From: Psammoneis japonica
Taxonomy: Eukaryota
Length of the DNA: 64,000 bases
Assembly: GCA_008632985.1 (NCBI GenBank)
Contig: QPGO01000035.1
Span: 235,899 to 299,898 of the forward strand
Direction of reading: 5' to 3'
Numbering within the stretch: position 1 is the first letter of the stretch; each line of letters starts with the position of its first letter. A program made the translations under genes and the position numbers. The notes beneath the pieces were generated by a model. It worked only from the letters and a program-made list of their open reading frames with translations. It was not told the DNA's origin and searched no databases. This document shows positions 1 to 51,269 of this stretch, in pieces.

Positions 1-3000
1 CACGATTAGCTTGCGCCACTGCCCGTTCAGCTCTTCCCTTCTCGTTGCACGTCTTTTCATGTTCGGCAGCACAGAAAAAAAAATCCCCCTGAGGTTGCTT
101 GGCAAGTTTTGGCTGTTGAGTCCAACCCGTCATGGACGTTCTGTCTTGTTCAGACCTTTGCAGGAAACTCATGGCAGGTTTGTTGAGGACCTTTTTGGCA
201 TGCTGGCACCCTCAAGAGTTTTGGGCTTGGCTTTGACCTGCGGGCAACTCTGTCACCACATTTCATGATACAGTGACCTTGCTGTGCGTTTGATTGGAGC
301 AGCAAGCTGCCTTTTCCCACAAGAACACTCTGGCAATGACAAAGGCTCAGCACAATGTGAAGATGTCTGCAGAACATGGAAGCTCCAGTCATCACATTGT
401 TCATGCACAAGTCTGCCTTGGATGTTTTTCAATGCATCCTTTCAAGGGGACACTCTGGAGAATTGTCAGTGCCTGTCTTCAACACAGAAGAAAGTGCTCT
501 GTCTGGCACTTGGATGACAGAGTTTTGGGTGTGTCTTGGTGCATCTTGAGAGGATCATTTGAGGTCCAGGATTTAGTCATGTTTTTTGGTTCATCAGATG
601 ACCATGGACTCTCACATTCTTTGACTCAGTCAAGGCACTTGCAGATTTGCTGAATTTCAAGCAACAATTTGCATCATTCAATGATTGTTGCATCATTGAT
701 CTTAAGACTGAAAGTCACTTCAGTGGCGCCAAGGCTTGGGAAGTTGTGGCAGCCTCTGTCAAAAGGAAATTTGAAGACATGCATGATGCGCACTCACCAA
801 TCCAGGATGAGCAGGGTGCAGACAAGTTTGTTGTGGTTTGGGATTTGCTGAAGAGAGCCATGAAGTTGTGAAGAGAATGTTTGTTGCATGATTCAAAAAC
901 CACCCTTCTGTCAACTGTGCACAGTTCTCCAGAAGATTGCAAGCACAAGTCCTGCAAGCATTCGAGCTTGGTTGGCAGCATTGAGAAAATGGCAAACTCC
1001 AGCCATGTGGCATTGATCAATAAAATCAAGTCTCATGTGTTCACTTCAGAGTGCCAGACAAAGTGAGCCTGTCATGGAGGCATCTCCAGCAAATGCTGGC
1101 TGCAAGCTCCCTTCCTCCACCTTCTTGCCTCACAAGCAGTCAGCAGAAACATCCTCTTTTTGCACACATTTCTGTGTGCAAGAAGCAGATGTTGCACATT
1201 TGGTGGGCCCTCTTGGCACATTCAATGAGCCAAAGGTCTGTGTCACATCTGGCTCATCTTGGATGTGGAGCACAGCTGTGCATCAAGTTGGGGCTGCAGC
1301 CTTGGTTTGTTGGTTCCCAGCAAGACTTTGGAAGAAAAAAAAAGGAACCGCGTCATCAGAGACACATCTCTGTCAATCTGAAGGGGGGGGGGGGGGCAAC
1401 TCTCTCAGCCATCAGTGCTTGGCTGAGTTTCACCTTGTTTTTGGCTCTGAGTGATGGTGCCTGTTTGATTGCTGATCTCCCTCACAACACTTTGGCCTCT
1501 TTCCCTGCCACCCTGCAGGTCTCTGTCTGACCATTGCTCCAGTTGAGGTTGTGCACTGACATTTTGCACTCTCTTGACACCACTTCCCAGCTCTGGAGGC
1601 ATCGCTTTCCCTGCCAAAAGCTGAAAAGCCCTGCTGTTTGTAAAGTGCCTTTGTCTTGCACGTGGGTCAAGGTGGCTTGACAGCTCAGCTTGGCGGAGTT
1701 GGGCACCCCTTGCATCCTCCCAACTCCTTCCTCAACCCTGCTGCTCCCCCACTTTTTGGTGCTCACCATCCCCAACCTGAGCACATGGCACCCTGTTGGG
1801 ACAGCTGGCATGAGCACCCATTTCCGTGGCCTTTTCCACCACTGTGGAATGTGCCTGAGTGGACTCCCTCCATCCGTTTTGCTTCAAAGAGCATCGGCAG
1901 CAAGAAACTTGGCCACTTGGGAACAAAGTCAAGCTCCAGATCTTCCACCTGGCTGGCAGGGCTTGAAGAGGCTGGTTGGAAGAGTGGAGAGAGCAAGAGC
2001 TCTGCCATGAGCAGTGCCATGTGCAGCTCCACTGTGAGTCTGTCCAATGGTGTGCTGAAGAGCTGACCAAAAGTCTGGAGTCACTGGTTGCGCCAATGTG
2101 TGGCACCACCAGAACAAACACATTCTCTGACTCAGGAGCAGGATGGTGGCTGAAGGCACCAAATCTGGTCTTGTCAGCAAAGAGAACTCCAGCCAAATTG
2201 CCCAAATGCATGAAGCACTTCCCCAAGACAGTTGGCAAGCACAGCTGTGGTGTCAATTTTTTCATGATTGGTCTCTTTGTTGGGGCAGATGATGTCAAGC
2301 CCGTGTGCTTTGGTTTTTTGTCTCTGTCTCCCAGGACCTGCCAGATCCTGACAAGCCAACTGCAGAACACTCTGGCCAATCATCAGCGCCAAGTCACAAA
2401 CAATGATGCAAACAAGTGCCCCAGAGTGGAGTTCTTTGCCAGAGTGACCAATCTCAGCTGCTTGTTGCATGCCACAGAGAACACATGGGCACTCTCTTTT
2501 GCACAGCTGTTCTGTGCACTCTGAATGGGTGTTGGAAAAAGATGATTGACAGACCATTTGGAAAAAAGCAGTGTGAACTTCACAGCACAGCATGGGGCTC
2601 TGCTGAAGATGCACAACATCAGCAACTTTGCTTCTTGGGCAGCCAACCTCAGACAGGCTGCTCTGACATTGGCAACAGGGTCCAGTTCTTTGAAATGACA
2701 TGCTCTGTTTGTCATGAATGAGCAAAGCACAAAGATGGTGTTTCTGTTGTGCCAAAAATGCAAGGGAGCAAACTTTGCAGGTGACACAAAAGCCAGCAAG
2801 TCCATCTAAGATGGCATTTCTCCTCAATCAAGTGCAGCTTCCAACAAAGGACTGGGCCAAAAAAAGATTTTCGAAGAGTTGGAGGAGCACATGGAACATC
2901 TTCAGAAGGCAGAAAGCTTGGGGCTTGCCTTCTCTGACATGTCCAGCCAGGCATGACTCTCAAGCAGGTGCCACAGCACCAAGCAGCCAGACAGAGGCCA

Positions 3001-5500
3001 GCCACAAATGGTTTGAAAAAGATCCCAGAACAATCACTTGAAAGAGGCACACAAAGCACTCAGTGCTCAAATGGCTGACTGCCTTCACTTTGTTGGCACA
3101 GATGGCAGACATGGCAGAGTCCATGTTTGAGATCAAGGAAGTGAGCAGCTCCATGAAGAGTGCAATGCTGAAAAGGCCAGCACCTGAAAACACAATTAAC
3201 ATGACCCCTTGTTCTGGTGGAACCTGTTGAGGAGGCGGAGATCAAGCTCCAAAGGCAATGTTGACAAGTGCACGGAACTGGCAGCTGTGCTCACTTGAGA
3301 GAACATCAGGAGGCCATGGGGAAAGAACCCCAACAGCATGCCATGCTGCCTCATGATCCTTGCACATGCAAAACATTTTTGAAAACAAGTGACACCCACT
3401 TGAGAGCATGGGACCATGGGAAGAACCCTCACAACAGTGGAAAGGATGTTGGCTCCTGATCAGTGGACTTGGCAAGAGTGGCAGTGAGACAAAAAAAGGC
3501 CAATGGCACCTGCACCACCCACTCAAGATGAAGAGGGACAATGGGGGCAACCCCATTGGCACCAACAAAATGACTGTCTTTTGATCCAAGACCATGACCA
3601 AGAACAGCCACAGCAGGAGAAGCAGCCACTGCCAGAGCTGCCAGAGAGACAGGTGCAGAGGAGGTGAGATGACCCTTGGATCCAACTCAATGTGCACAAA
3701 TGACAGACAACATGAAAAAGGTGGCAGCAGCAGCAGCAGCAGTGGTGGCAGAGCCAAGCTCTTTCTGCTGCCTCTCCTCTGCAGCTTGTGAAGTTGATGC
3801 TGCTGGCACCTCCACTCTCAGATGATGGCAACTTTGGGCAATGCATTTTGAAGGATGAGGGGCAAGAACAACCCACAAAAGTGCACAGCAAAAGGTTGCT
3901 AAAAAACATGAGTGGTGTGCACAACAAACAGCGAAACAAATGTTGCTGAAAAAGTGAGCAAATCAAGTGCTGGTTGACCAAACATGTTTGGCAGATGTGT
4001 GCACAAACACACGCACCACCAGCGTGTGAGGGCACCATTGACAATGACTGGGGCAGTTGACGTGTGGCAATTGTCAGACTTGTGCTGAGCACCGCAGTTG
4101 TTTGCACATGCACGAAACAACATGTTTGTGTGTGGTGTGTGGTGTCTGTGCATTGGCGCACAATTGCAAGCCCACAACAGAAGAAAAAAGGAGAAAGGGA
4201 GGATGATGGAGCAGAAAATCACCCTTGTTCAAGTTGCAATCATGTGCAAAATGCAACAAAATGACAGCAAAGACTGTCGTCATTGTCAAAGTGGGATGTT
4301 CAACAAGTCAATCAGGCAAAATGCAAATGAAAGTGGCTGAGCTGAGCACAAAGCAACGGATGGCTCTGCTGCTGGAAAGCTGAGGGTGCTGAGAACAGGG
4401 GAAATGAACAATCAAACAAAAAGGGGGCAATGCTGTGACAGTGGAGGTTCATGTGGAGGACATTGCCACCACCATGCAGTTGCCCACAATTTTGTGCTCT
4501 GCACAGAAATTGCGTGCAGCAATTTGTTTGGCCCTGGGCACTGGTCTGCACAGATTGCCAGATGGACAGCAGAGTGCATGCTAAGCCAGGCTGTGAGCAA
4601 TGTGAAAGTGTTGATGGGACAGGCAGGTCTGTGTGCACCAGACCACACAGACCTGGACTGGGCAACACAGGTTGCCCAAACTCAGCACACAAAATCCTGT
4701 GTGAGCCACTCACGGGGCTCTCATGGATTCTCACCCCCCAATGTGAAGCAGAGAATGTGAGCAACAATGAGAGAAAGACAACAAGTTTGTGCATTTGACT
4801 GTGGCACAGTGCACAAACTTTGACATGGTTGGCACATTGGCAGCACTCATTGTCGTCAGTGACTGCATGGCATGCTGTGTGTGAAACTCATCAATGAAAA
4901 CAGTGGGCAAAAAGATGATGTCAGCTGCCAGCCAATGGACTCTCTGCCTGCTGCAGCCGCCAGTTGGGGTGAACAAAACAGAGCTGACAAGAGCAAGATC
5001 TGACCAGGTTGTCCAGGGGGCGCTGATTGAGGCAAGCCTTTGCACCAGCGCCAAACAATTGTTGCAGCATGGCCTGACCACACCCATTTGCTGGGGGGGA
5101 AAGCCTCCCCTGGTGTGAGCACAGGTGTCATTTTTAAATGACAAACATTGGATTTGCAGAAATCATGTTGTTTGCCATGCACTGAGTTGGGTGAGAGCAC
5201 CCAGCGGGTTTTGCACGTGCCCCAGGAAGTTTGCCCCTGATGAGTCACATTGGCTGTCCACAGTCACAGCCAGCTTTGATTTGAGAGGTCCCTTTGGTGA
5301 ACCCTCGAAGACATGAAATGTGGTGTGTGTGCAATCTGTGCATTTTCACAGTGATTTTGTGATGACGAACAAAGCTCACAGCTCGCATCTCTTTTTTTTT
5401 TTGCACGTCGCTGGAAACAAGCAGCGGTTGTTCACTGGCGCCCCCGTGCACACGGCGAATCACAGACTTGCCACACCCCAGATGTCACATGCTGTGCTCT
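1..5500. repeat. Heavily decayed TpA- and CpG-depleted repeat/TE block, family not identifiable
   Basis: About a dozen TA dinucleotides in 5.5 kb (by eye), few CG and a strong TG/CA excess. Only short Tyr-free, Cys/His-rich ORFs occur, in all frames. Confidence 0.75.
2070..2320 (-). pseudogene. Decayed fragment resembling LCIB/theta-carbonic anhydrase family
   Basis: Translation HLGNLAGVLFADKTRFGAFSHHPAPESENVFVLVVPHIG resembles the LCIB-family motif LGGLxGxPFxGxTGFxAFSHH...LILxAPHxG. An adjacent frame has ICPNKETN (cf. SxCxDEIN). Confidence 0.5.
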
Positions 5501-7277: not shown

Positions 7278-9281
7278 TTATCCTAATGCAACACTTCTTT
7301 CAACTTCCCACACTTTTGCAATAGAATGAAACTCTCCTGCTTCCCCAAAACCGTCAATCTTTGCATCCACCGATGCCTTGTAGAATTGACGGTCAAACGA
7401 TGACCCCACCTTTGCCACGTCAACAGTTGTACCGGATATGCTACATGGCACTTGTGATTCTTCCAAATCATCAAGCAATGTTTCGTATTCCACATTCCAC
7501 AAGGGGTATTCCAAATTGAGTCCAGAATCTTGAAACGTCTTGTCTCGCCAGGCTTTGATGTGATCTAGATGCAAATCCCCAAAGACCAGCGAGGTAATCG
7601 TACTGTCCGTTCGTGGCAAGTTGGCCTGGATCACGTCCAAACCCTTTCGAATTCGACTCAGGTAGGTTTCGCCACTTCCTCGACGGAGTGGGACTCCAAG
7701 CAACGTAATGTCCAAATGTTGGGCCTGTCGCACAACGTCGTCAATGGGCACATCTTGATGTGCGATATTTCTCGATGTCGCATCAAAGGTTGTCAAGAGA
7801 ACTAGACCAAAAGGTGACTTTTTTCGGTAGGCTTGTACCAAGGCACGTATCGTCAAAAAGGAATCTTTGCCTCCACTATGAAACAATACCTTCACATTAC
7901 TGTTTAACGACAAGGAAAAGAGATCAGTGTCACTTGATTGTTGATACAGAATGGCGGGCTGTTGGATTTTCATGGCCTTGTCTCCAACGCTCTCGTGACT
8001 AAAGGGACAATGGCGGCATCCAGAACCACAACAGAAACCACGCTTCTTATGCGCGAGTTCCGTAAAGACCTTGTAACCTGTTTCTGGATCATCATAAGTC
8101 GCCTCCCCCTCAAGACAGGCTTGTTTGTGCAATTCTGCAAATCCCCCATCCGTTACAATATCTTCGACATCGCCAACACCGAGGCTAGTTTGATATAATG
8201 TGGAAGTGTCACGCACAGAAGAGGCAGTTTGCTCATTGGTCTTGATGTCTACAAGCTGAAAGCCTTCGGACGGCGGTAGTATGTTCAGCAATTCGATTGC
8301 TTTGATGACTTGTGGGTTATCATGATAGGCGCATTGCGCCAAAACGGCAACACCTTGCAGCAGAGAGGGCCCAGGTTGAGCAATGTATGAGTTTCCATCA
8401 CAGGCAAAGATTCTGGTCGTTGCTGAATTTTCTAGGAGAGGAGCAAACTTGTCCGCGTGCGCTATTGTGTCTTTTACGTTTCGTTTCAGATTAAAGCCAC
8501 AGCAGCCAACCACGATTACATCTGGCTTGGCATCATAAACTTCTTTCCACTTTATCTCTTTGGATTTGACACTTTGCCTTTTCAACTCTTTATTTGACTT
8601 GGCCGTTTCCACGCAAGCAAAATCCATCATTTGATATGTCCAGTGACCCGAATCAAAGGGTGGATCCAGCCATTCGAGTATAAAGAGTTTTGGAGGCGAC
8701 GTCAGAGAGCTTCCTCGACTTTTGAGAATCGTACTTTGTAAGCGCTCTAGTTCGCTCCACCACTTTTCTCGAAACTCAATTCCTCGTTCCGCCACACCGC
8801 ATGTTTGAGCGACTGTCACGAACGAATCGGCAACTTCTTTCAGATTGGTTGGATGCAGAGAAACAATTGTGATATCTTGATCATTGCATTGAATGATTTT
8901 CTTCACGTCTGCTGGTGTGGGAGCACAAACAGCACACAAATCTTGCGTAAAGATAACATTCGGCCTGGCCAAGTCGAACTGATCCTTGAGCAACGGATAA
9001 AAGGAGGGAATATCCTTCTCAGCAATACTGCAAGATTCAGGCAACGACGCGGACGATATTGCTTGATGGATTTCCCCTTGAGAGTCCACAGTCAAGCCGT
9101 TTTCTGTCAAGATACAAACGCTTGACATGGATTTTAGCTGCTGACATTCGTGTGTCACGCCGACAATGTTGTCCTCAAGTCCTAAAGCTACACAAATGGC
9201 TGTTGCGGATGGCAACAAACACGCGATCCGGAGATCTTTTGACGGTTCCGCTTGCATCTCTGGCATCGCTCCTTGCGGCAC
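7278..9281 (-). CDS. Three-domain fusion: BtuF/Fe-B12 periplasmic-binding-like + DUF5522-like Cys motif + Dph6-like PP-loop ATP pyrophosphatase
   Basis: Intact 667-aa ORF. N-terminal motifs IACLLPSATAI..LG..VGVTHEC, TQDLCAVCA, LEWLDPPF.SGHW and GCCGF. Middle motif YDDPETGYKVFT..HKKRGFCCGSGCRHCPF. C-terminal motifs SGGKDS, FGDLHLDHI, PLW and GEAGEFHS. Confidence 0.85.
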   Translation of the reverse strand: MPQGAMPEMQAEPSKDLRIACLLPSATAICVALGLEDNIVGVTHECQQLKSMSSVCILTENGLTVDSQGEIHQAISSASLPESCSIAEKDIPSFYPLLKDQFDLARPNVIFTQDLCAVCAPTPADVKKIIQCNDQDITIVSLHPTNLKEVADSFVTVAQTCGVAERGIEFREKWWSELERLQSTILKSRGSSLTSPPKLFILEWLDPPFDSGHWTYQMMDFACVETAKSNKELKRQSVKSKEIKWKEVYDAKPDVIVVGCCGFNLKRNVKDTIAHADKFAPLLENSATTRIFACDGNSYIAQPGPSLLQGVAVLAQCAYHDNPQVIKAIELLNILPPSEGFQLVDIKTNEQTASSVRDTSTLYQTSLGVGDVEDIVTDGGFAELHKQACLEGEATYDDPETGYKVFTELAHKKRGFCCGSGCRHCPFSHESVGDKAMKIQQPAILYQQSSDTDLFSLSLNSNVKVLFHSGGKDSFLTIRALVQAYRKKSPFGLVLLTTFDATSRNIAHQDVPIDDVVRQAQHLDITLLGVPLRRGSGETYLSRIRKGLDVIQANLPRTDSTITSLVFGDLHLDHIKAWRDKTFQDSGLNLEYPLWNVEYETLLDDLEESQVPCSISGTTVDVAKVGSSFDRQFYKASVDAKIDGFGEAGEFHSIAKVWEVERSVALG

Positions 9282-9609: not shown

Positions 9610-10430
9610 TACAGTGTCTCAGTTGCCCAGCATGTGTCGTGGCATTGACGAGATCAACAGCGCAAAAGGCATGACAGATTTGTCGCTGGAAACACGAAGG
9701 CTTGCAACCATCCTGACAGCCTCAGCAGAGGCAGGAGGTGCCGCCAGACTCTGAGCTTCCTTCAGATGTGCTGGGTGCCTCTCTGCTAAAACTCCTTTTG
9801 TGGGAGTTTCTTCCTTGGGGCCCCATGCAGGTTGCAGAGCAAAATCTCTGCGCACCACACTTGGCTTTGATCACCGCGCCTGTTCGGCCACTGTTCATTG
9901 CAGAGAAACTTTGAAGTGTGCATCTGCGCCATGATGAGGCACTGCTGCTTGGTGTGGCTTTTTGGTGTGGCAGCCGTGTGGGCACTGCTTTGAAGGCAAC
10001 CCTCAAGTTGGACTCTTTTTTTGTGTGTGCTGGAGCTGGAATGGAGACACATGCCTCCATCAATCTCTCCACCTTTTCAAGGTGAAAGATCATCACATGG
10101 TGAGATGATTGAGGATGGCGGTGGTTGCACAAGAACATTGTTGCCCAGAGACAAAATCCATCAACTCTTGTGTCAACACTCACACAAACATTGAGGTGCT
10201 GGGCCCCACTCCACAGGTGACATTTTGCACTTGCTTGAACCCCCCCAGGGCGCAGTCAGGTTGACCAAGTTTGGAGCATCTCTGGTTTTGCTTCCAACAA
10301 AGTCTGGAGACAGTTGATCACCATGTTCATGAGATGACTTTTTCACAGCTTGGTGCAGTCACAATGTCTGTGGACGTCTGCACCGGTGATGGCTCGACAC
10401 AAGCTCGACATCAAACCGCAGGCTCAGATG
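9610..10430. repeat. Short decayed TpA-depleted repeat fragment
   Basis: Almost no TA and TG/CA-rich, between normal-composition intergenic DNA. Confidence 0.6.
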
Positions 10431-10669
10431 CACTACCGGTGCGCCCCCATGTAGTGATCAAACACTTGATCGGCACGCGAAAGACACGCGCGACTCGTGG
10501 CAAACACGCGACCACGACACGAATCCGAACCAAACCGCCACCAAAAGCGTTCCCGTTGCGGTTTTGGCATTGCCTGCCATTTTTTCAACCTTTGCTTCCA
10601 TTGCATGACGCACAATAATTTGACACACTCCCTCGAAACGAACATACTCGTAACTCCGACACTTGTGCC

Positions 10670-12401: not shown

Positions 12402-15400
12402 TAACTTTTCGTAACAACTGGAACATGAACATAAATTTCTTGCAGGAAGCCGGAGTCTTCCAAAAAGACAGTGTGTCTCGTCACCGTTATGCAGGCCTGT
12501 CTATGACACCTTGTGGCACCGAAAGGATTTGCTATCTGCTACGAGTGATGCCGACTATGTGCTGACTTGTGAATTTGAATAATAACCCCCTTGCCACTTG
12601 CTTTGTAGCATGCAAAAGGGCAAAAGAGCAATGAATTGTGAGAGTTTCATGCAAGTGATCTCGCGCACAGCTCACATTGCAGCCGGGTGCCACGTCTCAC
12701 ACTCATCGAGCCAGAGTGCCAAACAAGCCCACAGCTGGAGAGTCATGAAAAGAAGAAGAAGAAAAAGAATGCAGCAACAGGCATCTGGAGCCAGGCCTGG
12801 GCATGAGCAATGGCAAAAAAAGCCAGTGGCTGTGCAAGAGCTTGGAGGAAAGACACAAAATGCAATGGCCAACCTGTCATCAGCATGCCAGACCCAGCAA
12901 CTGCACTTGGACATTGCGTTTAGATCCACGTGACTGGCTGCACAGTGGTTTGCAGGCTTGCTGGCAGCTGCTCATTGCTGTGCCCAATCCCAAAGGAGTC
13001 ACCTGCTGGCAACTTAGCACCCCCCCCTGTCTCAGATGCATGTGGGTTGTTGCCCTGCAGCTGTGCCTCACTGTTTGCTTCTGTTTCACAATGTGAGGAC
13101 AGAAGTTCAGATGTTCATGATTTTGCCAACATCTGAAGTTTGAGAGATCTGGGTTGAGCACTTTGTCCTGCATGACAACACATGACTGAACCATGTGTTT
13201 CCACTTGAACCGTGTTGTGCAAAACAAGGTCCACACAAACGTGGAAGTTTGCACACATTCCATGCCTCAGGGGAGCCATTTCCTTAGAGGATCCTGCTCA
13301 GGGGTGAACAACAACTGGCAGCTGGTGGTTGCTGCAGCCAGGCAACAATTCACAATGAGCACAGCTGCGTTGGATCCTTTGGGAACAGAGTGCTGTGTTG
13401 CATCAAATGGAGTGCTCAGCCTTGGCGGCAACCCAGTTGACATGGGCAGCTTCAGTTGGCTCCCAGCACCCAAAGAGGACTGCCAAGAAAATTGCATGCA
13501 CTGTCTTCATGACATGGCAAGTTGGCCCAGATGCCATGACATTTCCAACTGCACCAATGAAGACCCTGATGTGTTGAGTGTGCCAAATTCATGTGAGAGC
13601 TGCAAGGCAGCAGGCAGCAATGACATGGCTCTTGCAGCAGCCAAAGGCATCCTGCAGCACCTGGTTGCATTGTTGCCAAATAAAGGCCTGTGTGCAGCCA
13701 CTGTGAGGATGACAGATCTGAGCTGCAGATGGAGCTTCCTGCTGGCTTGGCCAAGTGCATGGAATGCTGTGCAGGTGCACTGTCAACAGCTGAGCCAAAG
13801 CAAAGTTCCTTCTTGAGCACATGTTTGACCACGGCTCCATGGGCCCCTCTGCATTTCTGACTGACTTTCTTGCTCACAGAACAAGTGTGTTTCATCAACA
13901 GTGTGTTGCATCAATGGAATGACCCTGAGTTGACAAAGGATGGCCAGTTGGGTGTTGCAAATGACAGCAATGATTTGCTGCCAGAGAAGAGACAGTGGAG
14001 CAGATGGCCTGCATCTGCCCACTTGGACTGTGTGGCAGCCAACCAGAACAAAACAAAAATGATGACAAAAAGGCAAAGAAGCAGGTGAGTGGGTTGGAGC
14101 AATTGCTGGTGGAGAGGAGGGGGTCACAGGGTGTTCTTGTGATGTGCATGTTGCCAACAAGCCAGACCCATTGGGTTTTGCAAATGACAAGGAACAATGG
14201 GGCACACTGCTGAGAGGATTCCTTGCCAGGCATGCCATTCCTGGGATGGCTCACCTTGCCAACTGGGAGAGCTTGGGCATTGAAAAAGAAGGGGGATGCC
14301 CCAGACTGTCAGAGGCAGAGATCTCATTTCACAATGCTCCCTCACCTCATCAATGTGCTCAGCATCAATTGCGCATCTCTTCATGGGACCTGCACAGTCT
14401 GCATCAATGCTTGCTGTCATGCAACTTGATGGTTGGCCAACAAGAGTGTTCTTGTTTGGTCCACTGCAATGTGGCAAGCAACAAAGAACATGATGGGACA
14501 CACCAGTGCTGTGCACATGGTGGAGACAGGAGCCCCAACGGACCACAGTTGGCACTGGGGAGAGCAGATGCAGACATTGTTGCATGTTTGCTGCACTTGG
14601 GAGAGATCATGAAAACTTTTGTGACCCGCTCCCAAACAACCCAGACCTTTTCATTTGCATCTGTTTGTCAGCTGCTTGGGAGCAGCTTCAGTCATTGACT
14701 GGACCACAGCATGTGTGCAACTCAGTTGTGTGGAGTCCAAGTGGAGAGCCAGGTTGACACTGGTGGATGAGAAAAACTTGACATTTATCTGCTCCACATT
14801 TGCCTGGACCATGGAGGACAACAAAATCAGAAACAACAACAATGGCACAAAGTTGATTGTGTGGAGCCTTGATGAAGTGCACAAGCAGTTCAAAACAGCT
14901 TCAGAGCTGTCACAACTTGGAATGCAGCTGCAGCCACCTCCCTCATCTGCTGCCCCTTTGGGCTGCTCCTGCAGCAGCTCCCTCTCTGAATCAATCCATC
15001 AACCATCAGTTTGTTGGCCCTCCAAACAACCATTGTGGCACCAGTGCTGCCCCCCCCCCCCCACTGTGACATCCAAAGCTCCTGCATCAGCAGCGGTCCT
15101 CAGTGTCAGCTCAACAGCCTTCCCAGTGTGGCCGCTGCTGTGCTTTCTCTGTCTAAACCTCCTGTGTCTGTCAACCCAACCAACACAACTCCAGCACCGT
15201 CTGCCACTCCCTCAATTTCCTCTGAGGGCATCGGGCATCATTGCTCTTTGTTTGTTGCAACATTGCCACTGTTTTTGCTGCTTCAGCCACAATTCTTGTT
15301 TCTTGCAAGCAGGGTTGGGATGCTGCTTGTGTGATTTTCATGCAACGGGAGGCATGAAGACAACTGCAGCACAGCTGTGGTTGGGATCTCTGAGCCCCTG

Positions 15401-18400
15401 GGATCTCATCACATGTTGCACTTTGCTTCAACAGCTCCCTGCACACACAAGCACTCACAGAGACTTTTGTCTTGAGCTGAGCCCACAAGACATGGCAAAA
15501 CTGACTCATTTCAAGTTGGAGTGAAGTCAATCTTGCCTCAGTGTGGAGAGAAATGAAGAGCAGGGACAACTTCTGCATTGGGGCAGTTTCATCAACAGCT
15601 CCCAGCAAATTTGACTCTGCCCAAAGCTTTTTGTGACAGCTTCTGTGCAAGCTGGCTGGCGCTGCTGGCAGCTCCTGACAAGCATGGTGCACCAAACACA
15701 AGAGCTCAACACTGAGACAGCTTTGCGTGAGCTGACAAGTGCTTGGAGAGAGAGAGAGCCATGTGATGATGACTCTTTTAAAAGAGCTGGCACTGGCGCT
15801 GCCCAAGATCCAAGAGAGGAGCTTTGCCTGAGCCCTGTCCAAACAGGGTCACACTTCATGCACTTTGCCTCTCAAGCACCACCTGAAAAGCTTGTGTGCC
15901 AATGCTGTTTTCAGGACAAATCAAGACTCTTGAGTGACATGCACATTGGCTGCCTGCTGCAGATTTCACTGGATGTCTGATCCAGGAAGGTTGGGCAGGC
16001 AAAACAGCACAAGCCAAAAAGATCCTTTGCTGGCACAAGCGCTGCTCTGCCATTTGACCAGGAGGGACCTTTGCTTCTCACACAGCTGCACTGGCTGACC
16101 ACATCATCTGGCTGGCACACATGCCACAAACTGCACTGCTTTCTGTCAACTTTTCTCACATGTGTGCTTTCTCACAAACCCGCGCAGCCACAGACAGCAC
16201 ACCACCTCCCAGCTTCACAAAACAATCAACCCATCACAAAGTGCATCACAGCACACCACCAGAAGAACAGGCTTGTCTTGCACAAGGCAAGCACACAATG
16301 CACACTGCAGGTGTCATGAGACTCAGCAAAGAAGATGGAGAAAATTTTTTGTGGATTTGTTGACCAAAGTTTTGTCCGGTCACCAGCCAGCCCTGATGAG
16401 ATTTGCACTTCATGTTCAACCTGCATGAGTCAGATGCTTCCTGAGGCTTGTTGTCCAGCACATGCACCCCTCAGGCTGCTGTGGTTGTTGGCATGGTTGT
16501 TTTCTTTTCTGGGTTTTTGTCTTTTGCTCTTCTAATTTGGAAGATGCTCCAGCAATGAGAAGAGCCAGCTTGATGCCTTGCGCTGTCTCTTGGGAGGCAA
16601 TCAAGCTCTGGCAGGGCCTGGCTCTGTCAAGTTGCCATGTCAAGGGATTCTGTTTCTTTTTTGTTTTCTCTGGATGAATTTCAGCCCCAGTTGCCATGTG
16701 ATGTGGGCCTGTGGAAATGTTCTGAGTGTGAGCTTTCTTGCAGTTCACACATTGGGTCATGAACACAGCATTTGCCTTCATGACATCAAAATCCATGACC
16801 AAATTTGCAGCTCAATTTTGCCTCTTCATGCTTGCAATTTTTGAAAATCCACCTGTGCTGTGCTGCTCCATGGACATTTAAAGCATGCCCTGGCCAGAGT
16901 CCAGCCAGAGCCATGCAAGAGATGTTGCACCCTTGTGCTCTCCTCCTTGACTTGGGCAGTGTGTGGATGGACCAGAAATCAGGACAGTGGGTTCAACAGC
17001 TGCAAGCATGGGGCACTTGAAGAATGCCACCCTGTGGCCACAACTGTCACAAATCTGCCACATGCAAGGACCACTCCCAAAAAGTCACTGCTTGCACCTT
17101 GTGCTGCATTTTGCTTTTGGGGCCAGCTTGCATGGCAAACAGAGAATGCAAGAACAGTGCTGGCTTCCCAAGATTCTTGAATTGCATCTTGTCTGGTGGT
17201 GCCAGGGTGTGGTTCACCAGATCTTCCTCATCATCCACTTTGGTTCCACCAAAATGATTTGAAAATGTTGGCAAAGTCCAACCCAAGCTTCTCAGCTGGA
17301 ATGCTTTTCCAGGTTCCTTCAACAAGGTCACAAGGATGAGCAACAGAAGGTTGAATCTTCTGGTGGGCAAGATGTCATTTGAAGTCAGGCTTGAAAGCCC
17401 CATGCCATTGTCGCACTGTGCATGTCACCAGCAGCTGGGTCTTTGTCTCAGGGTGGCTTGAAGATGAACACTCATTCGCAGCCATCATGACATTGGGAAT
17501 GTGGTCTCCCACATTGACAGATTGGCTGTTCTTCAACATTGGCTGGCTGTGCTGCAATGATGTGAGGCTGCAATTTGCTGTCAGGGCAGTCATCTGGGTT
17601 GCTTGCTCAGTCCATTGGGTGTGCATTTCTTGGACCACATGTGGGCCTCAATGAGGATTTTCTTCTTTTGCATCACAGTGTGAGATGAGCCCCAATTCAG
17701 CAGCACAACTTGCTGCACTGTCATGACTTGACCATCACATTCTGTTGCATCCGAGCAACAGCTCACCATCTTGGCTGCTTCCAGAACATTCAGTTTTCCA
17801 TGAGAATTGAGCAGATTGTCACTGCCAAAAGCACTGGACAAAATGATTTCAAAATGCAAGGAAACACCCACCAGTGACACATTCCTTGCCATCACAAAAT
17901 TCCATCGGCATCAGGCCCTGGGTGTGTTGAGCCAATCATTTTTTTTTTGCATTGTTCAGAACGCAATGAATGATGACAACAAATCACAGTCAGAGCAGCT
18001 CTGTGCTTGTGGCACCAAAACAACATGTGGATTTCTGCATGAGTCAGCCCCCCGCCCAGTTTTGCACAGTGCTGCTCACACTTTGATTGCTTTGTCACAG
18101 CTTTGATGCCATGTTGAAACTGCCCAATCCACTGATCTTGGAGCACCAGCTGCTGTTGACATTGACTGTCTCACTCCTTCAATGAAGCCAAACTGTTCTT
18201 TTAGAGAGAACAAATGTGTCAGGGCATGTCAAGTTTGAAGAAGAGAGCCATGGTGGATGCCAGAGACAAGAAAGAGGCACCACCACATGCACGTCATTGC
18301 ATTGTTGGTGAAAGCAAGAACAACAAATCTTCTGCCATTGAAATGCTGGGTGCCCTTCCACCAGATGCAAGTGTCACCATGATTGTGGAAAAGCTGCCCC

Positions 18401-19484
18401 ACAAGAAAAGCAGCATGGAAAAATTGTTGACTGCACTCTGGATCTTCTCGGGCTTCAAATGAAGAGCATGCAACAAGCTCAAAGGCACTGACATGCTCAA
18501 AAATCTTGTGCATGCATTGACATGATGAAGTTGTGAGACATCAAATCAGAAGCATGCAAACTCATTGCTCAGTTTTTGCACAATGGCAGTGGTCAACTCA
18601 AAAGGAAATTCAACATGGCTGATGCTCCTGACATCCTTCTTGTGCACGCCACAAAGCATGAAGCAGTTTCATGAGCAGTGCAAAATTCAGCAAATTGGTG
18701 GCTCTGCTCTTGTGCATGGGCAGATTTCTTTCAACTGCTGTTCCCTGGGAGATGCCATGCTTCCAACCTGACCATGGCAGCAATGGAGAAATCAGGGGCA
18801 AGGCTTGTTGGATTCACACTGGCACAATTTTCCAGAGTGCACACAAAGGACAGCAACACTGCAACTTGATCAAGGGCCACATTTCAAAGTTGGCCATTAG
18901 ACCACATTGCAAAGCCATGGGCACACCAAATGTCCCCATTGGCAAAAAGTGTTCCCAGTCAGAAACAAAATGAAGTGGCTCATTGCAGCCCTGCCAAAAC
19001 CTCTCCAGAGCCCAACCACTTTCATCCCAAAACATTTGCACTGAGGAATTGAGCTCTGTGGCACACCTTGTGGTGCCAACGCTGGCAGATGCTTTTGGAT
19101 GCAGATTTTTGTGAGCATTGGCTGGATGACAATGGTTCCTCTTCCACTCTGCTGGCTTCCTGGTGTGCAGGTCACTCCTTTTTTCCCTTTTTTTTCAGCA
19201 CATCTGTCTGGTCTTCACCACACTGAAAAATCACAATGCCACCTCTGAAAGGCAGTGCAAGCTCTTCTTGATTTGGCCACATCAAAAATGACCCAATCAG
19301 CACAGCGGTCCTTTGCAGATGTGTTTCATTTTTCATGCCCTGCAGTGGCTCATTGTTGTCATGCAGCGCCACACTTTTTCTGCCCCATTGTCTTCAAAGC
19401 AAATGCCTGTGGCTCTTGCCACTCTCAACTCCTGCCACAGCTCTTTCAGTTTGCCACCATCCTGAATGACGGCCTCCAGAATCC

Positions 19485-19755
19485 TGTCAACATCAGGGTG
19501 TGAGGTGGTTTTTAGAAGGACAGACAGACAATGTTGCAGCCCAAGATGCACTGGTGATCATTGATGATGTGGTGATTCTGCATTTGCAACTCTTGATGAG
19601 TTGTGCAGGTTGTGTGCTCACTTTTTAGCTTCTCTGCACCTGGTCAACACAAGAACAGAGACAAAAGCATTGGAAATGTGTTTGCAAGCCATGTGGTGAG
19701 TTGAGGATTGGCAAGACTGAGCACACACCAGTTGGTGAGCCATGAAATCCCAACA
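19485..19755 (+). repeat. 5' LTR of copia derivative
   Basis: Direct repeat of 20989-21271; TGT...ACA ends. Confidence 0.88.
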
Positions 19756-20988
19756 CAGAAACCAAAAAGTCACAGCATGACACTCAAAGAAGTGGTGTCA
19801 TTCAAAGGCAAAGAAACAGTCTTTGGAGGGCCTTGCTGTGAGACAGCTGCAAAGGTCTGCTGAAGAAGGGTGCAGCAAGGTTTTTGTGTCAGGCTGGGAT
19901 GGCATGGGCAATCAAGGATGCAACTGACTTTTTAGCCTGTGGTGTGTGTGACACCATTGCCAAGTTGGGTCGACAGGCAGACAGATGGTCACACAGAAAC
20001 TGTGAGAAAGACGAGTGAGCATGTCAGAAGAATGTTTGAGCCAGAGATGCAGGCACTGGCATCTCTGAAGCAGGAGAACAAACCAGAAAAGCCAGAGCAT
20101 CTGTTGGGTGAGACCATGTCAGAGAAGGACAAGGCCATCTGGGGAAAAAATGTGACCCCTGAATGGAGCAGGAGGATGTCATCTGCAAGATGCAGAAGGC
20201 AAAGGTGTTTGGCACAATTGTGGTGCAGTGCACAAAGGCCATCCATCACAAGGTTGAAGAGTTGACAAAGTTTTCAAAGGTTGTGAAGGAGTGGGATGTG
20301 GCATCACTGTTGGACATTCTCAAGTCAACCCACTGGCTCAATGCAAATGGGAGAAGAATCTGCTTGCATGATCAGGCTGTCCAGGCTTGGGAAGCAGTTG
20401 GCGCTCACTCATCAAGATGAGGAAAAGGTGCTTCAGAATCACTGCAGTTGACTCATGAGCATTGTTGAGATGGTTTGAGGGTCCTGCAGCAGAGTTGTCA
20501 CAGAAGAAATCACCAAGAGAGAAAATGGGTTTGGCAAAGATGCTGATTTCACATGACACCCTGAAGAAAGGAGCAAGTCATCAGCGGCACTGCTGATGGA
20601 AGGCACAAAGGAACACTGGCGCGTCTTGAAAGATCTGCATTGGCAGTTTGCACTGGGGATTGACAATCACCCCAAGTTGGCTGAGGAGGCATTGCAGGTG
20701 TTGGACAGCCATGGGGTCAACAAAAAGCCTGAGGGCACAAGTTTGTGCAAAGCAAAAAGAAGCAGCTCAAGTGCTGGAAATGTGACAAGGTTGGGCATGT
20801 GAGGAAAGATTGCACCCCCTCACTCAATGGCAAAGATGTTGATTTGTCAGTGGACATGAACAAAGTGAGCCATGGGAATTGGCAGAACAGTTGATGTGGC
20901 ATTGGATGGCATGGTCTCCAACTGTCATCCTCCTTGGATTGGTGCACACAAGGCCAATCAATTTGCAGCTTGGCTGCATGAAGAAGTG

Positions 20989-21271
20989 TGTTGGAACATC
21001 AGGGTGTGAGGTGTTTTTTAGAAGGACAAACAGACAATGTTGCAGTTTATGACACACTGGTGATTGTTGATGATGTGGTGATTCCACGTTTGCAACTCTT
21101 GATGAGGTGCAGGTCGTGTGCTCACTTTTTAGTTTCTGCAACACCTGGTTGATGCGAGAACCGAGAACAGCAGCGAGAGCACATCAGAAAAATGTGTTTG
21201 CAAGCCACACAGCAAATCAGGGATTGGTGAGACTGAACATGCACTGGTTGACAAGCCACAAAGTCCCAACA
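20989..21271 (+). repeat. 3' LTR of copia derivative
   Basis: TGTTGG...CCAACA termini; preceded by a PPT-like tract and followed by the TSD. Confidence 0.88.
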
Positions 21272-21997
21272 AATCCAGATCATTCACTGTGCGACGGTCT
21301 CAAGTCTCAAGACCCTGCCAAATCAGCGTGGAGACAACGCTGTTGCTCTTGCCACACCTGAGGCAGATGGGCGACCCAAGTTGTTGTTGCCTTGTTGCTG
21401 GTGCCCAAGGAGAGCAACTGACCTTTTTTGTCAAGAACAATCCAACCCAAGAAATGTTGCAACTGTGAGCTCACCAGCGCTGGCTCGCCCACCTGTGCCT
21501 CAGCTTGCAGCGAGCCAACTGCCCCAGGCCCAAAGGGAGGTGATGCGCTTTTCTTTTTGTCTTGTCTGAAGCATCACCAATGTGCCCTGCTTTGTGCTCT
21601 GTGTCATCAGCTGCCAAGCTGAATCATTTGTCCTCTGTTGGCAGCAGCAATGGAATCTTCAAAGGTGTGCATGCAACAAAGGAACTTCGAAAATTTGATG
21701 GTGGCACGCGCGGATTGCGATAACCAAAATCTGGCTCGCACTCACGGACAGACAGTCTGCCTTCCTCCGAAATAAAATCAAGGCCGGCGGATCTGCCTAC
21801 GAAAGATCGTACCATCATTCACGTAGAACGGATCTTTCCTGCATGTCAATTCTGCACACATACGTACGTAGTACTTCTACGCGTACTCGCTCGTGGGCCG
21901 CCGCAAAGGATTCTCCAAACATCTCAAAAGAAGGCGCGATCAAAACAGAGTCAAGAACATCAGCATCCTGAGATGATCAACAACCGAGAAGACAAGC

Positions 21998-23182: not shown

Positions 23183-23729
23183 AGAAACTCGGCGGGGCGC
23201 AGGACCAGCAAGCATTGGGTATCACGTCTGGGTAGAACTTGAGAGCTTGTCGACGCATACGATAAAATCAACGCGGGGGTCAAAAACCTTCTGCTGGCTT
23301 TTAATTTGATTTTCCAAGAAGTAATTCCATAAGCCACGTTACGATAGTCCTCAGCAGAGAAATCTTTGCTACAGTCGCTAGGAGAAGTGTCATGGAACGT
23401 CATGCTAGGACAGAGGCGCTGCCTTTCAATTTCAAAAGAGTTGCAAATCTCTTGATCCTGTGACATGATGGCTGCCGAACTTTTCGAAATAGGTTGGACT
23501 GCCATGTGCCACAGAAACCACAACCATAGAATTGAACGGCAACTGGAGAAACTGACAAACTACCGGACATGCATCCTTGCCTGGTGATTGGCGTGCGTCT
23601 CTGCCTGGGCTGAATGAAGGACTTCTGATGGTGACGTCACATCGTGATGGTGCCTTTGGAGATGAGCGTAACATCACATGCTCCCCAAACACAGTTCATG
23701 CCAACAGAAGCCCTCTGTTTGTAGTGACT

Positions 23730-26365
23730 GATGTTGCTCTCAACAGGAACACATTGTCATCAACTCTGAGCCATTGGAGCAGTGCGACATTCAACTCAGA
23801 TGCAAAAATGTGTTGCAACGAAATTTTCACAATCACAGGCACAGGCAGCTCTGCAAGATGCAACTCAATTTTGGTGTTTTGCTTGCAGACAAGAGCTCCC
23901 TGTCACAATGATGACATGAAAACCAACAACAACACTGCAGGAACCAGATGTGGGGTGGCACCACACCAAATTTGATCCATTTGAAAGACAGCTTCTGTCC
24001 CTGCGATTTTGGCAATTAAAAATGTGATGCAAAACTGACAAGAGTGCAACAAGCCACCATGTTCACCACAACTTTGCAGCAACAAATGGCGTTTGCACTT
24101 GCTGTCAGACCATTGGCTCAAAGGACACGTTGTGTTGCATGGTGGTGGACAAGGAAGAGAGCAGCCAAGGCATTGCCTGCACACACCCCCCAGGCAAATC
24201 AAAGTGCCAGAGCTCTGGCTGATTTTGTCATCATTGGATGCAAAGGCGGGCATCACATGTGGTGACTTGCAGATGCAACAAAATGGCCAAGGAAGCTCAA
24301 GAGCAAACAACAAGTTGTGCTGCTGGCAAACAAACAGCTGGAAGGAGACGCTTGTTGAGAAAAGCTTTTTGCACAAAGAAAGTCAAATGTTGCTGAGTGA
24401 ATCACCCAACAATTGCACTGGAAAATGGTGCCAAACACCACCAAAGTTGTGCAGAAATGGGTGTGCATGAAATGCAGTGCATGACAAAAAAAAACATCAG
24501 AAGCCACAGCCCAGCAGTGCAAAAGCCCCCACCTGGGTCTGGACCTGGAGCATGTCTCCATGACACTTGGGTTTGGTTGCAGCCCTTCTTTTGCAACCAG
24601 GGCCACAATGGCAGAACTTTGACCAATCTCAACAGTGCAGTTCTGGGGGCATTGCTCATCATGTGAGACCAGCAGAATTTGCTCAAAAGGGCAGTGTCAG
24701 CATGGCTGTGCCAGCCATGGCAGCACCCACTGAGCAATCCCTGGGGGAGCAAAGATGCCGTGTCTGTGCAAACATGTGGCATGCATGCATCTCTGAACAG
24801 CTGCAGTTTGCAGTTTGAACAATCTTGTCTAAAATTTACATTGGTGAACAAAGCACATGTGCCAATCAGTGCATTTGGGATTTTCAGTTAAATTCAGCAA
24901 GTGCTGGACAGACTCAATGTTTTTGGTGCCACAAAATTGAGATGTCACAAGCCCCCAAAATGTGCTGGAGAACAGAATGTTTTGGACAGCTGCTGTCCAG
25001 CAACCAACCATGCTCCATCATGAGTCTGCATCTGTCTGTCCATTGTGTGTTGTGCACTTTGAGTGGCTCTGGGCTGGAGACTGTTCACACACAGACTCTC
25101 AAGGAATTCAGACAAAGGGTGCATTGCCAGTGCCAGCACAGTGGTGCCACCGTCCCACTCACATCGTGAAACCCACAAACCCAAAAACTGTGGAGAATCT
25201 GTCTGCATTCCCCCCCTGCCCTGCCCTTGTCTGGACCAGAGACAGACATCTCTTTCTTTTGTTGTGACTCTGGACAGAACTGTGCAAGCCCAGACTGTCA
25301 AAGTCATTGACACAGCCAGCTTCTTGACATTGCCCTTGCCCCCTGGAGCTTGTGCAAAGCTGCTGCACTGTTGCACAAAACTGAGAGCTGGGTCCTCTGT
25401 GTCCTCAGAGTGACTTTTGGAGTTCTCTCCATGGGGAATCACATGATCGAAATAGACCTCCCTCCATCCTCATCTCATGCCTCGTCAAGACAGTGGGCTC
25501 AACTTTCAAAACAAAGGCTGCCCTCACCCAATGGCCATCAATCCTCATCAACTCCAAATCATCCAAAGAAACACCTTCCTTCAGCTCAAATCCATCAAAA
25601 TCCTTCAGCTCAACTGCCTCCCAAAAGCGAGCAGCACTGCTGGCCTCCTTTTTTCCACACATCATCCTCACTTGTGAGGTTCATTGTCAGGGGGGGTGTG
25701 GGGCCATGGCAAAGCTGGAGAAAAGTGTCCACATGCCTTGATTCATTCCCAGGCTGTGTGACATGAGCATCTGGACAGGCTTCAAACAAAATGTCTTGAA
25801 AATCCAAGTTGCCCCTCCCGTGCCCCAGCACTTTTTCCGCTTTTGTTTGTGTGGAGTCAACCACAATGGCGTGGGTTGGAGGTGGCCATGTGGGAGATTT
25901 TTAGTGCACTCCCTCTGGAACCTTCTTGAACATGCTGTCGTTGATGGCGTTCCTGTCAAGATTGGTTGCAGTGGCATGGGCTGCTGCGCTGCTGGCGGAA
26001 GTTGCTTTTTTTGTTTTCTTTGGCCTGGCCAGCAGCGTTGCTTGCCAGACCTGAGGCATCCACACATGCTTGTTCACTGCTTTGCCCTTGAATTGCTCAA
26101 AAGCATGAAAGAATCTCACCCCACACTGGATGATCCTCAAATGAATCTGATGAGAAACCCTGCAATGCCCACACGGGTGGTGTTGCCAAGGAGCCCTGGT
26201 TTGCTGGTGATGCGAACATCCAAACGAAGCCCAAGTGTCCTTCTCTCTAAGACTGACAAATGTGACAATGTGTGCCATTGGAAAACTTCAAACATTTTGT
26301 CGTTGCTCTCTGCAAGCATGGTTGTGATGACAATGAGACACAGCCGTCCAGCGAAGCGTTCAATT
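23730..26365. repeat. Decayed TpA-depleted block, probably Helitron-derived
   Basis: TA nearly absent; contains PIF1-helicase remnants (see next feature). Confidence 0.7.
25230..25990 (-). pseudogene. PIF1-like (Helitron Rep/Hel-type) helicase C-terminal remnant
   Basis: Frameshifted pieces TATNLDRNAIN, LQLCHG.P, IDGHWV, CNSAAALHKLQG (motif V, TxHKxQG) and WACTVLSRVTT (motif VI, YVxLSRV with Y->C). Confidence 0.65.
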
Positions 26366-35845: not shown

Positions 35846-36099
35846 TGGTTTGTTTGACCAACATGGAACATGGCCAAAAGATCGCAGAAGTCAAACTGTC
35901 GCGTCGGCGCAGAAAGGTGAAGTCCAAAACAAGGGATTATTCCAAAATTTCAAGATCGCGCCAATTGTTAGTTCTCATAATTAAAAAATTCGCAAGGACA
36001 AGTGAAAAATGGATGGTCGAAACGAAATTCCTGCCCTAATTCCATGGACGTCCATGCCACAGTTTTCAGCGGGAAAACGAGCCGCGGCGTGGAGGGAAG

Positions 36100-37250: not shown

Positions 37251-37634
37251 AGATCGTGCGCCCAACCACTGTGTGCTTCCAACACGAACGCAACGCTTGC
37301 GTTGGGTCTTGCTTTTTGGCTGCGGGTCGTGCGCGAAATGTCCAAGCAGACCACCGCGGATGCACGGCGCTTCAGTATATCATCTTGGCATCTCACAAAA
37401 CTCAACGCATGGGAAAATTGAAAATAAATGCACCCAGTCGTGCCAAGCAAGTTTGGTCATAAGAACGTGAAATCCACTCCACATTTCAAAAAGTTTCCAC
37501 TCACAATTCACAAAGGTGCAAGATTGGTAAGTCGATTACGAGTAACAGAGTCGCATCCCCCACCTCCTTTGCTCGACTCACAGCTGTCAATTGCATCTCA
37601 TTGTGCATGTAAACTTGTCCCACAGTCCATCACA

Positions 37635-39473: not shown

Positions 39474-39496
39474 CACTGCAGATGAGATTCTCTTTA
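39474..39496 (+). repeat. Left TIR of CACTG element
   Basis: Inverted match to 59380-59402 with 3 mismatches. Confidence 0.82.
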
Positions 39497-41489: not shown

Positions 41490-41740
41490 TTGTGCTCTGA
41501 ACATTTTAATCAGAGCAAAGCTTTGTTTAAATCATCACGTCACAATGCGGCACATTCAGAGCAAAGTGCAGTTGATCAAGGCCAAAACGCCTGCGCAGAG
41601 CACAATCAGAGCAAATTTGGTTGTTCGGAGCTCAAGAAATTTGTTCAGAGCATTGCACTCAGAGCATGATTTTGCAAATTAGAGCACTGAGCTAACATTC
41701 AGAGCATTGCTGTGATCATGAGCCAACATTCAGAGCGTTG
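41490..41740. repeat. Cluster of short CAGAGCA/TGCTCTG repeats
   Basis: Many (T/A)CAGAGCA copies; the same motif also occurs at 42280-42460 and 59120-59370. Confidence 0.6.
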
Positions 41741-51179: not shown

Positions 51180-51269
51180 AATGTGCTTCCACCTGTTGAT
51201 GACACCACACCGCTAACCTGCACCCTTGCATGGCGCAACTGCACAACACAACGAGGGTGTCCCAGCAAG

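Follow-up and report, generated by a model that had tools for sequence, protein, structure and literature searches.

TpA depletion in mobile-element relics of a pennate diatom, and a flanking-base rule for the surviving sites

The closest described counterpart of the pattern considered here is the TpA hypermutation of the alga Bigelowiella natans (Mettrop et al., bioRxiv 10.64898/2026.01.13.699255, 2026). According to the main text of that preprint, two integrated viral regions accumulated about 6e-7 mutations per site per generation in mutation-accumulation lines, and the changes were almost exclusively from TpA to TpG or CpA, that is from A:T to G:C. The same text describes 124 clusters in the B. 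natans genome that are poor in TpA and rich in CpA + TpG, reports an enrichment of reverse transcriptase and DDE domains among TpA-poor coding sequences, and puts forward an ADAT2-like deaminase as the agent, as a hypothesis (Mettrop et al., 2026). A similar pattern is described below for a stretch of 64,000 bp (the window) from Psammoneis japonica, namely positions 235,899 to 299,898 of contig QPGO01000035.1 in assembly GCA_008632985.1, which by its gene matches is nuclear DNA of a pennate diatom. Nine blocks of the window have lost nearly all of their TpA, and the few sites that survive obey a rule set by their flanking bases. It is probable, and we hold this with fair confidence, that the blocks are relics of mobile elements together with at least one pseudogene fragment, in which TpA was turned into TpG and CpA by a regional hypermutation acting on nuclear diatom DNA and governed by the 3' neighbour of the target base.

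TpA loss and the contexts of the surviving sites

Segmentation of the window with a two-state hidden Markov model on TpA gave nine depleted blocks, amounting to 40,695 bp and holding 148 TA at observed/expected ratios (O/E) of 0.014-0.09, and nine TA-normal, genic segments (23,207 bp, 865 TA, O/E about 0.5). The limits are sharp and the blocks adjoin TA-normal genes abruptly. The loss is specific to the dinucleotide: only TpA is depleted, joined by CpG in the old blocks, while CpA/TpG stands at an O/E of 1.4-2.0 in the depleted blocks. ApT (0.82-0.91 in the blocks versus 0.92 in the TA-normal segments), ApA/TpT (1.20-1.28 versus 1.18) and G+C (0.49-0.50 versus 0.475) are much the same in both. 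TG and CA are about equally frequent in seven of the nine blocks. Local asymmetries were seen at 36040-37372, with 159 TG and 110 CA, and at 51001-54500, where the plus strand has an excess of CA over a retrotransposon pol relic described below. The depleted blocks also contain many long spurious open reading frames (ORFs) in all six frames, 183 of them of at least 90 aa, because TAA and TAG are gone and TGA is the sole remaining stop.

Three of the blocks are poor in CpG (O/E 0.12-0.20), namely block 1 at 6-5498 (11 TA, TA O/E 0.032, CpG O/E 0.16, CpA/TpG O/E 1.8), the block at 12611-21716 (17 TA, TA O/E 0.029, CpG O/E 0.12) and that at 23570-26365 (9 TA, TA O/E 0.05, CpG O/E 0.20). The other six retain CpG at an O/E of 0.54-0.82. 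They comprise a small block at 9615-10606 (3 TA, O/E 0.053, CpG O/E about 0.55), a block at 36040-37372 in which CpG is partly kept (1 TA, O/E 0.014), and the blocks at 39972-48285 (49 TA, O/E 0.09, CpG O/E 0.63), which is multi-copy in the public sequence run X1, at 48555-55283 (34 TA, O/E 0.08, CpG O/E 0.82), which carries a gypsy relic, at 55713-59288 (19 TA, O/E 0.083, CpG O/E 0.66) and at 61363-63718 (5 TA, O/E 0.041, CpG O/E 0.65). Young blocks have a TpA ratio of 0.08 with a CpG ratio of 0.68, and old blocks 0.03 with 0.14, which indicates that TpA is lost faster than CpG. Two TA-normal islands interrupt the depleted region. The first, at 48286-48548, has a TA O/E of 0.45 and falls in the bin whose summed contig depth is the greatest (84,776); the second, at 55296-55711, is AT-rich (G+C 0.305, TA O/E 0.98) and its bins have summed depths of 15,243 and 5,462. 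These islands could be young insertions, segments too short for targeting, or organelle-like DNA.

The surviving TpA sites are not a random remnant. A sequence-only reading of block 1 had listed the TAs remaining there and held that nearly all are TAA on one strand or the other. All 11 TAs within 6-5498 are where it had placed them, with a boundary TA near 5500, and 10 of the 11 are indeed TAA/TTA, the sole exception being gaTAc at 269. The share expected in block 1 is 0.52 from a first-order Markov model, 0.45 from the contexts of CA/TG and 0.44 from base composition (p 0.012-0.002). Its further impression that survivors in other blocks look similar is borne out over the nine depleted blocks, where 117 of 148 (79%) are TAA/TTA against expectations of 0.53, 0.47 and 0.44 by the same three measures (p 5e-11 to 4e-18); within the window, therefore, the residual NTAN frequencies do not follow background composition but are enriched for TAA/TTA. 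The corresponding share is 34/37 in the three CpG-poor blocks and 83/111 in the six that retain CpG, and 361/865 (42%) in the TA-normal segments.

When survival is expressed as density in the depleted blocks relative to genic density, the tetranucleotides fall into a steep order. TTAA survives best (0.54), followed by CTAA/TTAG (0.37), GTAA/TTAC (0.13), CTAC/GTAG (0.08), ATAA/TTAT (0.06), CTAG (0.05), ATAG/CTAT (0.03), GTAC (0.02) and ATAC/GTAT (0.01), and no ATAT survives (0). The low value for ATAA/TTAT means that a single TAA is insufficient to protect a TA site. A half-site model, in which the two flanks contribute independently and additively, gave values for the 5' base of 0.24-0.36 for h(T), 1.0 for h(C), 1.7 for h(G) and 2.5-2.65 for h(A), and fitted with either of two baselines (likelihood ratio chi2 171 with genic DNA and 161 with five unmutated gypsy relatives, 3 degrees of freedom). 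The context extends one base further: A makes up 51% of bases at the first and also at the second position after a surviving TA, TAAA/TTTA accounts for 73 of the 148 survivors as compared with 253 of 1,656 baseline sites, and adding the +2 base improved the fit (likelihood ratio 45.2, 3 degrees of freedom, p 8e-10).

Converted relics, repeat pairs and neighbouring genes

A truncated Ty3/gypsy pol relic lies on the minus strand at 51234-53731 (ORF at 51512-53767, 751 aa) and comprises protease, reverse transcriptase, RNase H and the start of integrase, as recognised from Pfam and homologs. RVT_1, RT_RNaseH and RT_RNaseH_2 were matched at E values of 1e-12 to 1e-28 and Asp_protease_2 weakly, and tblastn of 120 homologs covered 51234-53731 and ended early in the integrase. 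The order of its domains identifies the relic, at the level of predicted protein, as a Ty3/gypsy long terminal repeat (LTR) retrotransposon; a search for its LTR pair found none, even in purine/pyrimidine code. The ORF has no Tyr among its 751 residues. At 19 columns where Tyr is conserved among 49 homologs it carries 15 Cys, 3 His and 1 Phe, and at a threshold of 50% the 21 Tyr sites are occupied by 16 TGY, 4 CAY and 1 TTT codons; outcomes of Val to Ala are seen besides His. It nonetheless keeps 80% of 400 conserved non-Tyr columns, within the 77-92% kept by the 49 intact homologs, which themselves retain a mean of 90% of their Tyr. As judged from these alignments, TpA has disappeared far more quickly than the sequence has decayed in general. 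TpA is at ordinary levels (O/E 0.45-0.71) in five metagenomic relatives of the pol, and a scan of viral contigs returned no pol relatives.

Tyr-poor relatives were also found in public data. Three of the 150 best pol representatives in a library of 1.84 billion proteins are Tyr-free or nearly so, and a separate protein search added one more. At conserved Tyr columns these four gypsy pols, which come from NCBI, ENA and JGI assemblies, have Cys and His in the proportions C7/H9 (P0243), C5/H3 (P0278), C3/H5 (P0275) and C9/H4 (P0158). The phenomenon is thus not confined to the window.

A second relic, on the minus strand at 56036-58861, belongs to a family of proteins of about 900 aa that is without annotation (best E 2.6e-164), one cluster of which has 204 members, on ENA assembly contigs as long as 1 Mb. 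In the relic the columns with a Tyr majority hold 10 Cys, 4 His, 2 Phe, 1 Ile and 1 Arg and no Tyr. An Atlas look-up led to Plavaka/Transposase_21 transposases, a lead that Pfam, with no domain matched at E up to 1, did not confirm; the relic is probably of a non-retro element. An LCIB-type gene (theta/beta carbonic anhydrase-like) has left a degenerate remnant in block 1, on the minus strand at 1735-2379 (PF18599, E 1.7e-6, 27.9 bits), with weak matches to LCIB chains in the PDB (E 0.005-0.08). Block 1 has 28 ORFs of 90 aa or more, and this was their sole Pfam match; over all 183 ORFs of that length in the depleted blocks the gypsy pol and this one LCIB match were the only ones, and the window ORFs that were scanned yielded no deaminase. 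The LCIB remnant suggests that the mutator also struck a host-gene fragment or pseudogene. Block 1 further contains a run of about 14 G at 1383-1396 and a (GCA)n microsatellite at 3721-3740.

Evidence that conversion took place after duplication comes from repeats. Since all of the changes are transitions, the window was recoded to purines and pyrimidines. A nucleotide self-BLAST had found four short repeats only; recoding returned the same pairs at higher identity and, beyond these known pairs and three self-inverted matches, of which the strongest was at 46854-47055 (184 bits), no match in the recoded window scored more than a few bits above the shuffled maximum of 65.9 bits. Two directly repeated copies at 19489-19755 and 20995-21271, both on the plus strand, are 77% identical as nucleotides and 93% identical as purines and pyrimidines. 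They show 50-54 differences, 46-48 of which are transitions, with 14-15 dinucleotides at which CA aligns with TG and four at which CG aligns with CA/TG. The dinucleotides discordant between CA and TG imply that an ancestral TA (or CG) was resolved independently in two resident copies. The only TAs that the copies share are two TTTAG sites. An 82-bp inverted repeat is informative in another way, its plus-strand copy at 39495-39576 lying in a TA-normal segment and its partner at 41407-41488 in a depleted block. Six of the eight differences in the 82 bp are TA versus CA/TG, and the copy in the TA-normal segment is largely unconverted. The state of TA therefore depends on where a copy is located and not on its family alone. 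The context is listed for five of these differences, TA being in the copy outside the block at four and in the partner at one; at those four, TA before C has become TG and TA before A has become CA.

Survival alone does not distinguish an effect of the 3' neighbour of a target base from one of the base lying two positions to its 5' side, as TA is its own complement, and three further results bear on this. The products of ATAA and GTAA are mostly ACAA and GCAA in four of four block-and-baseline comparisons and those of CTAA are mixed; this tetranucleotide analysis against proxy baselines is noisy, with several cells yielding meaningless shares, and the outcome at xTAA is the only consistent one. 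A change from xTAA to xCAA means that the A before A was spared and that the A on the other strand, before T or C, was changed. The second result is the outcome at the four polarised sites of the inverted repeat, which conforms to this pattern. Third, for Tyr codons (TAY) the share of Cys is predicted to be about 60% if the 3' neighbour matters and about 40% if the base two positions 5' does. Cys:His is 26:8 in the two window relics and 24:21 in the four Tyr-poor public pols, and the pooled ratio of 50:29 (0.63) agrees with 0.60 (p 0.57) and departs from 0.40 (p 4e-5). Together these favour the 3' neighbour of the target A, and the loss of ATAA/TTAT is what such a rule would predict.

The copy number of the blocks was gauged with contigs of run X1. 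Over 39600-59500 a total of 6,105 contigs align at a likeness of at least 80% (943 at 99% or more, 1,504 at 95-99%, 2,163 at 90-95% and 1,495 below 90%), which shows that the blocks there are multi-copy. Among these copies the variable places comprise 277 A>G, 287 G>A, 302 C>T and 262 T>C, with 42-70 in each class of transversion, and at 8 of 26 places examined (out of 1,563) other copies have TA where the window has CA/TG. Contigs at a depth of 33-38 show 0 differences from the depleted sequence over 740-2,465 bp. For block 1, 0.93 of sampled 31-mers are present in X1 contigs, and no RNA data set was among the matches listed for its sequence. Some X1 contigs join 48692 directly to 55740, skipping 7,047 bp and with 3-5 extra letters between. 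This junction resembles an empty site for an insertion, nested in another repeat, that includes the gypsy relic.

The TA-normal segments hold host genes. An intronless ORF of 667 aa on the minus strand at 7278-9281 fuses a periplasmic-binding-protein domain, DUF5522 and a diphthamide-synthase-like domain, and its product is conserved across diatoms (324 matches, the best of them at 62-67% identity in Bacillariaceae, Cylindrotheca and other pennates). At 32041-34738 on the minus strand, adjoining ORFs code for a protein kinase domain and for one of guanylate/adenylate cyclase type, and probably belong to a single gene for a receptor-type cyclase, interrupted by an intron or a change of frame. 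Besides this kinase-guanylate cyclase receptor, other ORFs of the window encode a bestrophin, an ALMT/FUSC-type channel and an ankyrin/F-box protein.

The proposed process and its alternatives

The sequence shows that A:T-to-G:C transitions occurred at TpA only, on both strands, in place after duplication and in each copy separately, within sharp regional limits and under a flank rule. In the process proposed here the A of each strand in 5'-T[A]N-3' behaves as a separate target; how susceptible it is depends on the base 3' of it (T>C>G>A), with further protection where a second A follows. On this account TTAA, CTAA/TTAG and TAAA/TTTA survive because a TA persists only where both strands are poor substrates, and ATAA/TTAT is lost because its other strand is a good one. 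The agent would be an enzyme, most simply a DNA adenine deaminase whose product, hypoxanthine, is read as G, and it may be targeted to silenced chromatin, an idea already put forward for B. natans. The sequence-only reading had spoken of a sequence-specific enzyme that disfavours a 3' A. The disfavour of a 3' A stands and can be extended to the full order and to the protection by a second A; TAA by itself falls short, as the fate of ATAA/TTAT makes plain, and the enzyme keeps the standing of a plausible agent. That diatoms carry a chromatin-directed base editor of DNA that erases TpA from silenced mobile elements, a mirror image of repeat-induced point mutation (RIP) with T[A]N as its target, the 3' order T>C>G>A and protection by A-tracts, is a more tentative proposal, slightly harder to believe than to doubt, as is its possible extension to the whole of the SAR supergroup (stramenopiles, alveolates and rhizarians). 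Such a system may be widespread in SAR, since a rhizarian alga shares the signature and Tyr-free gypsy relics occur in several assemblies.

Several observations weigh against this account or limit it. The survival values are calculated from proxy ancestors, namely the genic segments and the five relatives, and not from true ancestral copies. The additive model is imperfect, in that CTAG was lost beyond its prediction (4 observed, 7.5-10.8 predicted) and CTAA/TTAG exceeds it in the old blocks (20 against 10.6). The two window relics lean further towards Cys than the rule predicts (26:8, p 0.054 against 0.60), and on the sense strand of the gypsy pol the changes per kb relative to the five relatives, whose G+C differs, are -37.6 for TA, +28.6 for TG and -2.5 for CA; an additional local strand bias is possible. 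In block 1, Pfam recognises no transposon domain in any of the 28 ORFs that reach 90 aa. The two TA-normal islands lie in bins of very high depth, so that high copy number alone may not trigger the process, and the assembly may itself derive from X1, which would then not be independent support. Lastly, chemistry directed at A and chemistry directed at T leave identical sequence patterns.

The last of these points gives rise to the alternative that survives best, although it too is unlikely. The same regional process at TpA could act through thymine, by modification or oxidation (for example to 5-hydroxymethyluracil by enzymes of the TET/JBP type), the altered base then being mis-repaired or mispaired so as to end as C. 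An A that has a 3' A is, seen from the opposite strand, a T that has a 5' T, so that in this version a T with a 5' T would be spared and a T with a 5' A preferred. Given that TA is self-complementary, the survival of NTAN, the products and the Tyr outcomes are described equally well, and 5-hydroxymethyluracil occurs preferentially at TpA in dinoflagellate DNA. No result, however, ties thymine modification to mutation from T to C, and the authors of the B. natans study favour adenine deamination in their main text, as a hypothesis only (Mettrop et al., 2026).

It is less probable still that erasure was blind to context and that the residual TAs are new mutations, arising after it or during it, with the TAA/TTA bias a consequence of common precursors. 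CAA/TTG and TCA/TGA are plentiful in the blocks, and some X1 copies have TA, for the most part in TAA contexts, at places that are CA in the window, an observation that fits either direction of change. But the contexts of CA/TG predict that 47% of the sites should be TAA/TTA where 79% are (p 2e-15), and the older, CpG-poor blocks are purer in this respect than the younger ones, the opposite of what random accumulation would give. The restriction of the TAs common to the copies at 19489 and 20995 to two TTTAG sites also argues against it, as does the rarity of ATAA, which is easily made from ACAA or ATGA.

Two explanations are very improbable, each to about the same degree. In the first, the RNA of transposons would undergo ADAR-like A-to-I editing and then reverse transcription, fixing A-to-G changes in new insertions. 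The 5' U/T preference does resemble that of ADAR (bioRxiv 10.64898/2026.01.13.699255, main text), and the excess of TA-to-TG on the sense strand of the gypsy pol would fit. Both strands were converted, however, as is seen from the near equality of TG and CA in most blocks and from the His and Val-to-Ala outcomes in the gypsy pol; the Cys:His ratio of the other Tyr-poor pols is close to even; two resident copies were converted independently; and the LCIB pseudogene fragment and a probably non-retro element are affected too. ADARs, moreover, have a preference for a 3' G, unlike the order T>C>G>A found here. In the second, a modified TpA would have been read as TG or CA through an artefact of assembly or base-calling, and modified bases can indeed give systematic errors in signal-based sequencing. 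Against this stand the exact agreement of X1 contigs with the depleted sequence and their coverage of block 1, the Tyr-free gypsy pols with Cys/His at Tyr columns in other NCBI, ENA and JGI assemblies, and the normal state of the genes that adjoin the blocks. GC-biased gene conversion and selection against TpA/UpA are the least likely of all and were rejected, the former (which the sequence-only reading had likewise disfavoured, with any general GC bias) because TpA alone, with CpG in the older blocks, was lost while ApT, ApA/TpT and G+C stayed essentially unchanged, and the latter because all Tyr codons of the two coding relics were destroyed, which selection for function would not do.

Comparison with described systems

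A genome defence that turns TpA into TpG and CpA has been described so far in one preprint of 2026, from a distant alga, and the diatom widens its range. A chromatin-directed editor in diatoms, if it exists, would be a natural editor of double-stranded DNA from A:T to G:C, and a natural enzyme that makes this change in chromosomal DNA would be of interest for base-editing technology. The flank rule, by the 3' neighbour and the base next to it, is the first sequence rule for the agent and can be tested on candidate deaminases. The process also explains how diatom repeats can come to appear as long DNA rich in ORFs and free of Tyr, TAA and TAG, which misleads gene finders and the annotation of transposons. 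In a full-text search, with subscription papers outside its reach, no report of TpA depletion in diatom repeats was found, and in the main text of the B. natans preprint (10.64898/2026.01.13.699255), its supplements being outside the search, the words 'diatom', 'stramenopile', 'context', 'flanking' and 'trinucleotide' do not occur.

Methylated transposons likewise gain CpA/TpG through CpG decay, traces of which are present in the three older blocks (CpG O/E 0.12-0.20). Unlike the process considered here, this decay cannot remove TpA, and in the window it has been slower than the loss of TpA. ADAR/APOBEC-type editing of retroelements in animals resembles the diatom pattern in that mobile elements are hypermutated in a deaminase-like way and the nearest neighbour matters (ADAR prefers a 5' U/T), but in the diatom both DNA strands and resident copies are affected, and an ADAR-type pattern, with A-to-G on the sense strand only, was not found. 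ADARs are not known from diatoms.

In its logic the closest analogue, by comparison of the patterns, is RIP of ascomycete fungi, although it works in the opposite direction. In both, dinucleotide-specific transitions saturate DNA in place and within sharp limits, and destroy its coding capacity. As to action on duplicated sequence, copy by copy, the observations from the window point both ways: two copies were converted independently and the blocks are multi-copy, yet the TA-normal islands lie in bins of very high depth and one repeat copy in a TA-normal segment is largely unconverted. RIP turns CpA into TpA by chemistry at C:G and leaves AT-rich DNA, whereas here TpA becomes CpA/TpG by change at A:T and G+C is hardly altered. 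Identity with RIP was rejected on the TpA ratio of 0.03-0.09, the excess of CpA/TpG and the G+C of 0.49-0.50.

The likeness to B. natans, as far as its main text describes it, is one of kind. Changes at TpA only, confinement to foreign or mobile regions, and low TpA with high CpA + TpG are common to both (Mettrop et al., 2026). In the window the changes are confined to TpA to TpG/CpA, and they lie in discrete foreign or mobile regions with genes spared, the sole evidence of origin for block 1 being its LCIB-like remnant. The differences lie in host, target, depth and rate. B. natans is a rhizarian alga and the present host a stramenopile diatom; the targets described there are single-copy insertions of nucleocytoplasmic large DNA viruses and virophages, and those in the diatom are multi-copy relics of transposons together with a pseudogene fragment; and erasure is near saturation here (O/E 0.03), compared with 0.45 in the region of nucleocytoplasmic large DNA virus origin in B. 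natans. The rate in B. natans was measured in mutation-accumulation lines, whereas the diatom case is known from sequence. Taken together, the evidence supports the diatom case as a further instance of a recently described kind of genome defence, one whose surviving sites yield a first substrate rule.

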